64,000 bases of DNA from Felixounavirus NRG857CP1 (OZ035806.1); one strand, 5' to 3'. Counted from the first letter of the stretch, positions 11,291-27,704 are shown. Translations and numbers: made by a program. The notes: generated by a model not told the origin, from the letters alone.

Positions 11291-19309
<8,019 letters not shown>

Positions 19310-20545: not shown

Positions 20546-22927
20546 ATGGCAGATTACAAATTGAGTGAATTAAACTCAATCGATACAATCCGTTCAGACG
20601 ACCTTCTTCATGTCAGGGTTAAAAAGAGACCTGAAATGCTGGGTGATGAAGACCGTCGAATGACCTATCAAGACTTCTTAGCATCTTTTAAACTTGAAAG
20701 ATTTGTTCAGATTACTGGTAGCACTATGGCGGGTGACTTAGGGATTGTTAAGTTACTTTATGGTGGTAAGGTAGTCTTTGACCCAACAGGCTCTTCTGAG
20801 ATTACTATTGGGGATGTTTTAAAGTCTTTTAAAATCAATGCAAATGGCCTTAAACTAACTATTGCTGACGCTTCAAGGTCGGCAACTGTTTATCATACTC
20901 TGAATAAACCAAGCCCTAATGAACTTGGGATGAGAACTAATGAAGAGAATGATGCAAGATATGCAAGGCTTGCTGTGAATAATACCTTTAGAGGTACTCA
21001 AGCTATTCTCTCTGACAATGAAGCCCTTATTGTTAAGAATATTACACAAGGGATGCCACTCTATATTCGTGGTCAAGATGCAGATGGCACTAACAGATGG
21101 TATCTAGGCAATGATAATAAAGGCACAGACAACCTTGTTTTAAAAAACGTTAAATCTGGTGCATACGTAGCGATTTTAGCTAACCTAATCTCTGTGAATA
21201 AATCAATTCAAATCACTGGTCAAGTTCAACCTTCTGATTGGGCTAACTTAGATACTAGATACTTTACTCAGACAGCAGCTAATCAGAGATTTGCGCAGTT
21301 AGCTGGTAATAACACATTTAGTGGTTCTAATATTTTTACTAATTTTGTTGTTAAGAAGAATGCTAATGCTATTACTATTCAAAATGTAGATACAACTGCG
21401 GCTTTGTATATCCAAGCAAGAAAGTCAGATGGGACTAATAAGTGGTACATTGGTAATGACGGTGATGAGAACATTGTAAACATCTATAACTATTTAGCAA
21501 AAACACAAATCTCATTAGGTAACACCATTACCATGAGCAGAACAGTCCAAATTGGTGGTCAAGTTCAACCTTCTGATTGGACTAACATTGACTCTAGATA
21601 CATTCCAGCAGGAACTTTGAGTAATCTTGCTAAACTAAGTGATGTAAACACTTTCAGGTATGCACAGGTTATTAAGCAGAATGGTTCATTGTTACAGCTA
21701 AAGAACACTACACAAGACAGAGAGCTTTACTTTGCTGGTCATAATGCTGATGGTGTTAGAAGGTGGTACATCGGTAATGGGGAACCATCCAACCCAACAA
21801 GATTTACTATCCGCAACGACAGAACTGCAACTACGCTTTATATGCAAGACGATTTCTTGTTGGATAAAACTGTCAGAATTACTGGTCAAGTTCAACCTTC
21901 AGATTTCTCTAACTTAGATGCTAGATATTTCTTAAAAACAAAACTGTTAAACCAATCTTTAATGACAAGGACAGCTAATAGACTGGATGACCCATCATCA
22001 TTCAACAAAGATTGTTCAGGGTTTGTAAGAAACAACGCTATTGAGCAGGGTCTGAAAGATTTAGCCATCCATGTAGCACATTCTGCTGGTATTGCTCATG
22101 CCAGAGGTATTGCTTTTACATATGGGTCTAAAGGTCTTGATGTCTTCACATACGCTTATGGGTCAGATGGAGCATATGTTGGAGAGGCACAGTTGTATTC
22201 AACGGCATTTAAACCAGCCCCTTCAGATATTGGTGCATACACTAAAGCTGAAACTGACCAGAAGATTGCACAGGCAGTAAGTGACTCTACAGACCTTAAC
22301 AAAATCTATCCAGTAGGTATTGTAACATGGTTTAACAGTAATGTTGACCCTAATACGGCACTTCCTGGTCTAACTTGGACGTACCTGAACAATGGTGTTG
22401 GTAGAACTATCAGAATTGCAGCAGCAAATGGTTCAGATGTTGCTACAACTGGCGGTTCAGATTCTGTAACGTTAGCTGTTGGTAACTTACCATCACACAC
22501 CCACAGCTTCTCTGCTACCACTTCATCTTTTGATTATGGTACGAAGAGCACTAATAGCACTGGTGGTCATACTCACTCTGTAAGTGGTACAACAAGTGCT
22601 GCTGGTAACCACGCTCACCACTTAGGTCTGCTATTGGTTAATGGTGGTGATGCTCAGTACGGTTATACAACTGTTAGCAATAACAAGACGAGAACTCTTG
22701 ACTGGCTTGACAGAACTGATAACAAGTTCCCTAACACTAACACAACTGGTAACCATACACACACATGGTCTGGTACTACAAGTAACACTGGTGCTCACAC
22801 CCACTCTGTAGGTATTGGTGCTCACACCCATACAGTTAGTGGTAACACTGGTGGTACAGGTTCTGGTTCAGCATTTAGTGTCACTAACCAGTTCTACAAG
22901 TTAATGGCTTGGGTGAGAACTGCTTAA
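20546..22927 (+). CDS. tail fibre protein (long) with internal ~110-aa repeats and His-x-His tip
   Basis: 793 aa; three repeats of [16 protein letters not shown] and [11 protein letters not shown]-type motifs; C-terminal domain paralogous to 19312-20499 ([54 protein letters not shown], ...AWVRTA). Confidence 0.7.
21060..21930 (+). repeat. three in-frame ~330-bp imperfect tandem repeats within the long tail fibre gene
   Basis: ggtcaagttcaaccttctgat recurs at about 21218, 21557 and 21884, with conserved flanking codons. Confidence 0.8.
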
Positions 22928-26205: not shown

Positions 26206-26535
26206 TTAATCTGCCAACCTTAAATTAAAATTAACACCAAATTTTTCACATACTTCCAACATATACTCAAGGGAAACATTCCCAGTGAGGTGGATTATGT
26301 TGGATACACGAGCCTGAGAGATACCACAAATTTTAGCAACTTGCTCTTGAGAAAGACCTCTGGATTTAATCTCTCTCTTAAAACGATGTGCAACGAAGTC
26401 TCTCATTTCGTCTACATCCATTGGACAAATATAACTCTCCATTTCAGCCTCTCTATCAGCCTCCCAATCATCTTGTGGGGCATAAGGGTCAAAAACCTCA
26501 TTCATCTTTCTTCTTCCGTTTGCGTGAAGTGTCAA
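26206..26535 (-). CDS. helix-turn-helix DNA-binding protein (putative regulator)
   Basis: 109 aa; XRE-type HTH-like segment LSQEQVAKICGISQARVSNIIHLTGNVSLEYMLEVCEKFG. Confidence 0.4.
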   Translation of the reverse strand: MTLHANGRRKMNEVFDPYAPQDDWEADREAEMESYICPMDVDEMRDFVAHRFKREIKSRGLSQEQVAKICGISQARVSNIIHLTGNVSLEYMLEVCEKFGVNFNLRLAD

Positions 26536-26711: not shown

Positions 26712-27095
26712 TCAAATACCTGTGCAGCTTCTGTTTTCTAAGAAATACTCCACACCATACATAGCTTTTTGCATCAAATCTTCTTTAAACTGGATACGAT
26801 GGTTGAGCATAGCCTGTACATCAATATCATCATGGTGCTTCTCTTTAATGTTTGCAGATTGCAGGAAATACTCTGCAAGAACACGATATTGGTAGTCAGT
26901 CACCTTATCAGTCATCTCTGTCAAAGACTCTTCAGAGATTGGTTTAAGTAGCTCACCTTTAGATAGAGCAACACCTTTTACAATATGGCAAGTGTCTTCT
27001 GGAACACCTGATAAGTCCACATTTGGAAGTTCTGTTGCATTGACTGGTAAATTTATTGCCATAACCATTGCAGCAGCTAATAAAATCTTTTTCAT
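26712..27095 (-). CDS. secreted/periplasmic protein with signal peptide
   Basis: N-terminus MKKILLAAAMVMAINLPVNATE looks like a Sec signal peptide. Confidence 0.45.
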   Translation of the reverse strand: MKKILLAAAMVMAINLPVNATELPNVDLSGVPEDTCHIVKGVALSKGELLKPISEESLTEMTDKVTDYQYRVLAEYFLQSANIKEKHHDDIDVQAMLNHRIQFKEDLMQKAMYGVEYFLENRSCTGI

Positions 27096-27189
27096 AATGA
27101 CCTCAAAGTTATATTAAATTTTGTATTACATTGAGTATAAAAATAAGCTATAACACCTGACTTGTCAACAGATTTTATAGCTTATTTGG

Positions 27190-27515
27190 CAGATTTTTTA
27201 TAAGGCTACTGCCATCCTTCCATACATTACCTAACCAAGCCGAACATCACACAACCAGACCGAGCCGCACCCCGCCTTATTAAAAGACCCTCTTTAAAGA
27301 CCTTTTAAAAAGGTGAGTCTCATTTTAATGTAGCTGAGACTAACTACCCATACCGAACCTCACCGCACCATACTACACCTGACACCACCTTACACCACCG
27401 CACCATACCTGACCGAGCTACACATCACTTAAAAACCCTTTTCAAAGACTCTTAAGTGATGCTGGTGAGTACCCGTTGGTTTATGCTGCTCAGTATACTC
27501 ACCAAATTTTCTATG
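27190..27515. repeat. non-coding region, C/A-rich on plus strand, with two imperfect direct repeat units and two stem-loops
   Basis: No ORF of 60 aa or more; units ccgaacatcacacaaccagaccgagccgcac... and ccgaacctcaccgcacc...gaccgagctacac..., each followed by a ttaaaa-ccc-t-ttt-aaagac-...-ggtgagt segment; hairpins gagtctca/tgagact (27313-27342) and ggtgagta/tactcacc (27466-27502). Confidence 0.6.
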
Positions 27516-27704
27516 TCAACAACTTTCTAATAAAGTTTTATGAAGATTTTGCTTAACAACCCGCCTCACATGCCTGTGCTCTTTCTTAATAAAGAGTGAC
27601 CTCTTCTTGATAGAGCGCCTATTCTTGTAAGTATTACTAGGATACTTATCATGAACCGGACAACAGCTACCCGGATTGGTAAACTTGATAATCTCTCTTT
27701 TCAC
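27516..27704 (-). CDS. small basic protein (uncertain)
   Basis: 62 aa Lys/Arg-rich ORF immediately downstream of ligase; could be spurious. Confidence 0.25.
   Translation of the reverse strand: MKREIIKFTNPGSCCPVHDKYPSNTYKNRRSIKKRSLFIKKEHRHVRRVVKQNLHKTLLESC

Follow-up and report, generated by a model that had tools for sequence, protein, structure and literature searches.

Two vrRNA genes of a type II VIPR system, very probably stranded without their effector, in the Felix O1-like phage NRG857CP1

We report here that an ORF-free region in the genome of Felixounavirus NRG857CP1 very probably harbors two vrRNA genes that belong to a type II (SUSP1-clade) VIPR system and remain there without its effector. 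We term these vrRNA-A and vrRNA-B. The window analyzed is a stretch of 64,000 nucleotides (OZ035806.1), to which all positions in the phage refer; it is 100% identical to the NRG857CP1 record OZ035796.1, with the same numbering, and the whole genome comprises 84,421 bp. Genes of this kind have already been described in recent preprints, whose text does not treat a guide-only state like that of these two SUSP1-clade genes.

VIPR was described in two unreviewed bioRxiv preprints of 2026, on which the mechanism rests (10.64898/2026.04.26.720920, 10.64898/2026.04.26.720927). According to these, a vrRNA is composed of 9-16 YNNGG repeats, in which GGY is conserved and NN is hypervariable, and ends in an invariable tail, which in the SUSP1 clade folds into a pseudoknot; internal repeat degeneracy is also noted (10.64898/2026.04.26.720920, 10.64898/2026.04.26.720927). 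In phage SUSP1, four vrRNAs of ~100 nt flank the genes vipr and vap, were seen in small-RNA sequencing, and co-purify with Vipr, an ~20-kDa RAMP homologue that forms a filament and not a ring; Vap of type II is a predicted DNA-binding accessory protein (10.64898/2026.04.26.720920, 10.64898/2026.04.26.720927). Cryo-EM showed one Vipr protomer per repeat, with GGY flipped out and a 3' pseudoknot present; base pairing of the NN dinucleotides with double-stranded DNA omits every third target base and silences transcription (10.64898/2026.04.26.720920, 10.64898/2026.04.26.720927). Among the SUSP1-clade guides with identifiable targets, 18/20 match a satellite that parasitizes the phage, and satellites with a vrRNA but without vipr are also mentioned (10.64898/2026.04.26.720920, 10.64898/2026.04.26.720927). 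The text of the VIPR preprint makes no mention of vipr-less phages that keep vrRNAs.

Results

An ORF-free interval with a 5-nt period

All genes flanking the region are on the minus strand; a DNA ligase gene adjoins it, and a DNA polymerase gene is located within a few kb (Table 1). A reading of the window made from its sequence only had claimed a gene-free interval here, and the claim holds: no ORF of 60 aa or more is present in 27096-27515, and even with the limit lowered to 30 aa, both strands are free of ORFs between 27117 and 27516. At 420 nt, compared to 227 nt for the runner-up, this is the longest such interval in the window. The sequence-only reading had ranked it as the largest apart from a divergent promoter region; the rank stands, and the exception does not, since the interval exceeds that region too.

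The strand skew described in the same reading is likewise present. The minus strand of 27184-27429 is rich in G and T (83 G, 77 T, 56 A, and 30 C), and the GC skew of the plus strand over 27100-27499 is -0.34 to -0.51, against approximately -0.1 to -0.25 in the flanks, which amounts to a local dip without a change of sign. The skew results from two arrays of 5-nt GGY+NN repeats. On the minus strand, GGT or GGC recurs with a strict 5-nt period in two blocks, a period that the earlier reading had missed; the two related units that it had reported do exist, but their description was imprecise, the underlying order being this pentamer. Over 12 units the periodicity scores of the two blocks are 33/36 and 29/36. 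The mean over the window is 8.2 (sd 2.5), and the highest score outside the two blocks is 20; the periodicity is far beyond chance. There are no GGY+NN arrays besides these two in the whole 84,421-bp genome.

Among the repeat units of vrRNA-A, 10/16 have an exact GGY, the others beginning with TGT, AGT, or AGC, and in vrRNA-B 8/11 are exact and 3 are TGT, with a pseudo-unit AATAA before the tract. Degenerate units like these are also found in phages that possess vipr. The predicted lengths of the RNAs, counted as tract plus tail, are ~118 nt for vrRNA-A and 93-98 nt for vrRNA-B, with ends inferred from SUSP1 only.

No matches were obtained for the whole window with Rfam (at gathering thresholds) or ARAGORN, Pfam had none for Vipr and Vap or for the 62-aa and 127-aa products, and the genome papers on Felix O1 and UAB_Phi87 do not discuss the region. 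The 62-aa ORF that precedes the interval encodes a basic, Cys-containing product (VKREIIKFTNPGSCCPVHDKYPSNTYKNRRS...) and starts with a GTG overlapping the ligase stop codon (TAGTG). Relative to an unannotated copy in SUSP1, a by-eye comparison gave ~11 synonymous and 2 non-synonymous changes, and because the former far outnumber the latter the ORF is probably a real gene. It is missing from AYO145A-type loci.

Table 1. Features of the NRG857CP1 vrRNA region, listed in the direction of the minus strand
Feature	Position	Strand	Sequence, basis, or remark
DNA ligase gene	end at 27704	-	
62-aa ORF	27516-27704	-	
Promoter P1	27492-27519	-	TTGACA-N16-TATACT; 11/12 consensus positions
Inverted repeat	27464-27503	.	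GGTGAGTA-N24-TACTCACC; the perfect 8-bp hairpin of the sequence-only reading
Leader a, hairpin ahead of array A	27423-27461	-	CATCACTTAA-N19-TTAAGTGATG; inverted-repeat search, comparison
vrRNA-A repeat tract, 16 units GGY+NN	27350-27429	-	periodicity, register
vrRNA-A guide core, units 3-14	27360-27419	-	12/12 dinucleotides match satellite tape-measure gene
vrRNA-A 3' tail	27312-27349	-	alignment, covariation
vrRNA-A pseudoknot helix	27344-27347 with 27330-27333	-	GTAG with CTAC
vrRNA-A tail stem	27335-27341 with 27316-27322	-	the gagtctca/tgagact hairpin of the sequence-only reading
Leader b, between tail A and array B	27277-27311	-	TTTTTAAAAGGTCTTTAAAGAGGGTCTTTTAATAA
vrRNA-B repeat tract, 11 units GGY+NN	27222-27276	-	periodicity, register
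vrRNA-B 3' tail	27184-27221	-	alignment, covariation
vrRNA-B pseudoknot helix	27216-27219 with 27202-27205	-	AAGG with CCTT
vrRNA-B tail stem	27209-27213 with 27188-27192	-	GGCAG with CTGCC
Promoter P2	27140-27168	-	TTGACA-N17-TATTTT; part of element 27140-27187
127-aa protein gene	ATG at 27095	-	

Leaders, pseudoknot tails, and promoters of the two arrays

Each array has a conserved leader at its 5' side and a 38-nt tail at its 3' side. The two leaders share the motif GTCTT..AA.AGGGT.TTTTAA, and leader a is a candidate processing signal or 5' handle. Across the related loci described below, 17 distinct 38-nt tails of four classes align without gaps and support an H-type pseudoknot, composed of a stem of 5-7 bp and a 4-bp helix in which the 5' flank pairs with the loop. 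In this set of 17 tails, 94.7% of the cells are paired, compared to 28-38% when the partners are slid against one another; compensatory changes occur at 9/11 pairs, and the pseudoknot helix is 100% paired. Both tails of the window conform to this structure. A hairpin noted from the sequence alone, gagtctca/tgagact, is present at 27313-27322 and 27335-27344.

The second such hairpin, ggtgagta/tactcacc, is also present, at 27464-27471 and 27496-27503, as an inverted repeat that is identical in SUSP1. It spans the -10 box of promoter P1 and the likely transcription start, so that its 5' arm is probably not contained in the RNA, and a candidate DNA operator is more plausible here than an RNA structure. 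P1 is presumed to drive a vrRNA precursor, and the two vrRNAs are probably still transcribed. The -35 box of promoter P2 is situated between the 19-nt arms of a further inverted repeat, 27141-27159 and 27169-27187; P2 drives the downstream 127-aa gene, as context outside the vrRNAs proper. Both promoters are thus embedded in inverted repeats of operator-like appearance. A gene for an HTH_3 regulator of 99 aa is located three genes downstream of the region (26209-26505).

Related loci in other phages

The SUSP1 locus (L148) contains, in this order, ligase gene, small ORF, P1, inverted repeat, leader, arrays, P2, and 127-aa gene. The window is syntenic with it, and the constant parts are nearly identical. 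For a broader comparison we used 27 syntenic loci, including that of the window, from GenBank phages and IMG/VR, with the final set of arrays extracted by anchoring on the tails. On the gene-sense strand these loci have 1-5 arrays each and yield 64 distinct arrays of 7-20 units, every one located behind one of two related leaders and ending in one of four tail classes. GGY is preserved across the 64 distinct arrays, whereas NN and the number of units vary. In a set of arrays selected by GGT, which does not include those of the window and in which the positional contrast is therefore partly built in, unit positions 1-3 (G, G, T/C) carry 1.2-1.3 bits each, compared to 0.12 bits for positions 4-5, and the triplet is GGY at 86-89% per position. 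Phages that are otherwise nearly identical differ freely in the sequence of their arrays and in the number of units.

Unrelated phages of Gordonia, Pseudomonas, Mycobacterium, and Vibrio have arrays of the same kind beside their vipr homologues. An exact search of IMG/VR for seven GGTNN units returned >120 stretches, among them simple microsatellites and coding cases, and many unrelated viral contigs contain tandem "arrays of arrays", for example seven in L036 and nine or more in L046 and L124. In these contigs and in L043, L131, L146, and others, 7 to 11+ tandem GGTNN arrays are present, each ending in a contig-specific motif (GGTAAGGCTA; GGTAAGGAATGGTTT; GGGCAG). The multi-array contigs presumably represent further VIPR types, in which the guide arrays are large.

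In every phage record examined, the vrRNAs, vipr, and vap are hypothetical or unannotated. Parts of the arrays are annotated only as unnamed direct repeats in wV8 (DR_4) and in bumzen, garuso, and others (repeat_region).

Loss of vipr and vap

Both vipr and vap, together with 3-5 arrays, are present at 18/27 loci; the other 9/27, including the window, are without both genes and have 1-2 arrays. In AYO145A, wV8, and bumzen, a two-gene cassette is located between two copies of the non-coding sequence of the window. One of its genes in AYO145A, orf090, encodes a 195-aa protein with 97.9% identity to the Vipr of SUSP1 (agp039), and the other, orf089, is a homologue of SUSP1 agp038 (Vap). Using the AYO145A proteins as tblastn queries against the whole 84,421-bp NRG857CP1 genome, the best E values were 0.34 for Vipr and 0.93 for Vap. 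An HMM built from six diverse Vipr proteins gave a best E of 0.87 against the six-frame translation, compared to 1e-91 for AYO145A as a positive control.

This state is common. A total of 230 phage records match the region and ~118 Felix-like records encode Vipr, so that about half of the related records are without vipr and yet keep the region. The nine vipr-less loci comprise three architectures, with gaps of ~275, 425, and 560-610 nt, and in each of the nine the inverted repeat and P2 are still present, together with a leader, one or more arrays, and an intact tail. P1 has its TATACT form in 8/9 of these loci (the window and 7/8 of its vipr-less relatives) and in SUSP1; in the exception, L009, the -10 box is TATGCT.

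The arrangement in the window is that of vrRNA#1 of a vipr-containing phage joined to vrRNA#4. vrRNA-A equals the first vrRNA of AYO145A apart from a two-unit indel. The last array of the vipr-containing phage L020 is identical to vrRNA-B, and that of another, L011, deviates from it at 1 nt. Relatives with vipr contain a repeated tail-plus-leader block of ~80 nt, which is the likely recombination substrate by which vipr and vap were deleted. An ancestor would have lost vrRNA#2, the array of vrRNA#3, and the vipr and vap genes through homologous recombination between the ~80-nt blocks behind vrRNA#1 and vrRNA#3, and this would have left vrRNA#1 fused to vrRNA#4.

Matches of the guides to E. coli satellites

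Satellites were located by blastn with the SUSP1 baseplate gene named in the preprint, of which homologues were detected in 474/5,426 complete E. coli genomes. Of these 474 satellite-bearing genomes, 11 satellite loci (L165-L175, all E. coli chromosomes; for example, NZ_AP024114.1 2091363-2113875) were used in the target tests. The satellites are islands of ~12 kb, most of them inserted in yecE (DUF72) or between yciI and tonB and often disrupted by IS elements. They carry genes for a serine recombinase and for tape-measure and baseplate proteins, as well as HNH, Dam, or AP2 genes, and the baseplate gene has 71-85% DNA identity to the SUSP1 gene.

When arrays of nine or more units were scored on the 11 satellite loci, 44/62 reached at least 80% of their NN positions with NNx spacing (one base skipped). 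The same 62 arrays gave 1 at this threshold with no base skipped, 0 with two, and 3 with three. The published targeting rule is thus reproduced on independent data.

For vrRNA-A the score with one skipped base is 27/32, compared to no more than 21/32 in the skip-0, -2, and -3 controls. Units 3-14 (TC CA AT GC GG AA GG CA GT AT GC GA) form 12 consecutive perfect dinucleotides with the tape-measure gene of a satellite, at position 9585 of L174 and position 9693 of L170; the site in L174 reads TCACAGATGGCTGGTAAGGGTCAGGTTATGGCTGAA. The match is in frame with the gene, the skipped base being the wobble position, and the last two units do not match this best target. A related site occurs in at least ~170 genomes. 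In a search with a designed "perfect" 48-mer target of vrRNA-A, no variant did better than the tape-measure sites of L174 and L170.

The score of vrRNA-B is 21/24 at L173 3315-3350 on the minus strand, against no more than 18/24 in the skip-0, -2, and -3 controls, a target that rests on one satellite. Here the site covers the ribosome-binding site, ATG, and first codons of a small satellite gene situated just 3' of a TTGACA-N17-TAAGAT promoter, and one and a half units are unmatched.

No comparable target was found in the phage itself. The best skip-1 scores in its own genome, 20/32 and 16/22, are level with those at other spacings, and for the vrRNAs of Felix-like phages scored against the NRG857CP1 genome, skip 1 was no better than the controls. 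Exact 10-unit NNx patterns of both vrRNAs had no matches in IMG/VR. In GTDB genomes, that of vrRNA-A had 15 matches, all in cyanobacteria (L149-L163); these were judged to be a coincidence arising from a conserved protein motif, G-K/N-G-Q/H-V-I/M-A-D/E-S-I/M, of a gene family in cyanobacteria, and were dropped as targets.

The AYO145A copy of vrRNA-A (the first upstream array, L001/L019) contains 10 additional nt, equal to two units (AAGGTGGTGT), and because of this insertion it is out of register with the tape-measure target. Its best match is 64% (five satellites), compared to 84% for the version in the window (eleven satellites). The AYO145A copy is either a slippage variant with a disabled guide or aimed at a satellite allele outside our sample.

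Two of the satellites, L168 (minus strand, 21330-21409) and L174 (minus strand, 18640-18719), contain a GGY/NN array of their own that ends in a phage T2-type tail (GGGTGGAT.G...GTAGCCAC). Both are without vipr or vap and would need the Vipr of a helper phage. A blastn search with tail plus leader against the 5,426 E. coli genomes gave no match, and satellite vrRNAs surfaced only in the retrieved satellites.

Discussion

The region of NRG857CP1 contains GGY+NN tracts with pseudoknot tails, in synteny with the SUSP1 locus, and its guides have satellite targets under the one-base skip and no self-target; the vipr and vap genes of a complete VIPR locus were not found in this phage. Of the interpretations offered by the sequence-only reading, structured non-coding RNAs of the minus strand have held up, in view of covarying pseudoknot tails, a near-consensus sigma-70 promoter, and ~100-nt transcripts from the orthologous region of SUSP1, and those of an iteron-type origin and a packaging or regulatory element have not. 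If the mechanism proposed in the preprints applies, a Vipr protomer would bind each repeat and flip out its GGY, and the 3' pseudoknot would cap the Vipr filament. The exposed NN would then pair with target DNA, skipping the third base, to give an R-loop triplex that would block transcription of the target, naturally a satellite parasitizing the phage.

In a single infection the two vrRNAs have no protein partner, and they are therefore most likely recent relics that are still transcribed and would be active only with Vipr supplied in trans. A rather unlikely alternative is that orphan vrRNAs owe their maintenance to a function in trans, either by loading onto the Vipr of a co-infecting relative that possesses vipr or by acting as decoys that titrate the Vipr of a rival, an anti-VIPR analogous to RNA anti-CRISPRs. 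The abundance of vipr-less records, about half of those matching the region, is in line with such a use, as is the intactness of the remnants: across three architectures, 9/9 vipr-less loci keep array, leader, and pseudoknot tail, nearly all with the TATACT form of P1. Moreover, satellite matches are about equally frequent for arrays of vipr-less loci (8/13) and of loci with vipr (36/49; Fisher p = 0.50), and the GGY fidelity of the two groups is similar (0.70 versus 0.77, p = 0.13). Guide-only carriage already exists in the satellites L168 and L174, which have a vrRNA with a phage tail and no vipr. However, the arrays are identical or nearly identical to those of vipr-containing phages, and recent loss together with frequent recombination would explain their intactness without selection. 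Recombination between the repeated tails and leaders necessarily leaves one hybrid vrRNA, and P1 and the last tail, which abut P2, may be kept for the expression of the downstream operon. With so little divergence since the loss, there has been no time in which decay could have become visible in the window's arrays, whether these are relics or are used in trans.

If orphan vrRNAs do act in trans or as decoys, guide-only carriage would be a selected strategy in an RNA-guided system and not the debris of a deletion. Phages without vipr would then either hijack the Vipr of a co-infecting phage that possesses the gene, a guide parasitism of the kind that vrRNA-bearing satellites must practice, or bind up that of a rival.

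Explanations that do without VIPR fare much worse. A replication origin, of the iteron or R-loop type, would suit the neighboring replication genes, with DNA ligase adjacent and polymerase a few kb away, and also the strong promoter, the abundance of G on the non-template strand, and the presence of palindromes rich in A and T, for example CCTTTTTAAAAGG and TCTTTAAAGA. Iterons, however, are conserved initiator-binding repeats of ~17-22 bp, and the unit found here is strand-specific, 5 nt long, and has 3 conserved bases; array sequence and unit number vary freely, the NN positions, when read by the VIPR code, correspond to DNA of satellites and thus of foreign elements, such arrays also adjoin vipr homologues in the unrelated phages of Gordonia, Pseudomonas, Mycobacterium, and Vibrio, and the GC skew keeps its sign through the dip. 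We therefore regard an origin as very improbable.

Equally hard to credit is a TRAP-like attenuator or protein-sponge RNA, in which a ring-shaped protein would read 11-16 GGU triplets 2 nt apart. A triplet every 5 nt, repeated 11-16 times and followed by a hairpin and U-run, would look much like this, and the idea is loosely right in that an oligomeric protein reads one triplet per subunit. But the reader of GGY is Vipr, which forms a RAMP-fold filament rather than a ring, the triplet is GGY and not (G/U)AG, and the NN spacers carry target information for which a sponge or attenuator has no need. In our view the target matches already refute it as a separate explanation.

The least probable reading of all is a decaying pentanucleotide microsatellite or a Rho-utilization site on antisense transcripts of the plus strand: that strand is indeed C-rich and G-poor, and simple GGTNN microsatellites do occur in other viral contigs, but decay would bias all five positions of the unit, against the 0.12 versus 1.2-1.3 bits observed (a contrast that is partly built into the GGT-selected set), and neither version accounts for the pseudoknot tails or the target matches.

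A packaging or regulatory element finds no support in a strand-specific 5-nt unit whose NN match satellite DNA under a code that skips 1 nt, and a packaging site leaves the information in NN, the covarying tails, and the presence of arrays beside vipr homologues unexplained. Chi-like GGTGG, two-tetrad G-quadruplexes, and a ribosome (anti-SD) sponge were also considered. These ideas were dropped, along with those of TRAP, an R-loop, and rut, because the NN positions carry target information. A repeat search for a CRISPR array detected only the pentamer register and the copies of leader and tail, and none of the identical repeats of 23-50 nt.

The two genes in NRG857CP1 are thus best understood as vrRNA genes stranded without their effector. 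Rfam does not contain vrRNAs, nor do the annotations of the phages examined, in which they are at most an unlabelled "repeat_region" or "DR_4", and the 5-nt GGY/NN signature can be detected in raw sequence alone. The effector cassette is often missing, in roughly half of the sequenced relatives, while the guides are still there, their promoter, tail, and target matches intact, and this bears on the turnover of VIPR and on a possible sharing of guides between co-infecting elements. It also bears on Felix O1-like phages, which are employed in typing and biocontrol, on E. coli that carry satellites (474/5,426 complete genomes).

Compared to the type II VIPR of SUSP1, the locus of NRG857CP1 occupies the same slot, from DNA ligase to the 127-aa gene, has the same promoter, inverted repeat, and leader sequences, contains GGY+NN tracts of 11-16 units with the same classes of 3'-pseudoknot tails, and has NN dinucleotides that, read with a 1-nt skip, match E. 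coli satellites of the same kind. It differs from SUSP1 in being without vipr and vap and in having two vrRNAs, not four. Like CRISPR crRNAs, vrRNAs are guides in which a variable targeting part is combined with a constant handle bound by RAMP-fold proteins. Unlike in CRISPR, there are no contiguous spacers here and no acquisition machinery; the information is contained in dinucleotides every 5 nt, with a target base skipped. A second parallel is provided by the TRAP site in the trp leader of Bacillus subtilis, in which 11 (G/U)AG triplets separated by 2-3-nt spacers are bound by an 11-mer ring. Here, too, a conserved triplet recurs approximately every 5 nt, one per subunit of a homo-oligomer. 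In vrRNAs, by contrast, the triplet is GGY, Vipr forms an open helical RAMP filament, and the spacers are informational and pair with DNA, so that the output is DNA targeting and not attenuation. The guide-only state reported here has a parallel in the orphan CRISPR mini-arrays and solitary repeats (RNA anti-CRISPRs) borne by phages, which are guides without effector genes and which rely on, or interfere with, an effector encoded elsewhere, as orphan vrRNAs might.
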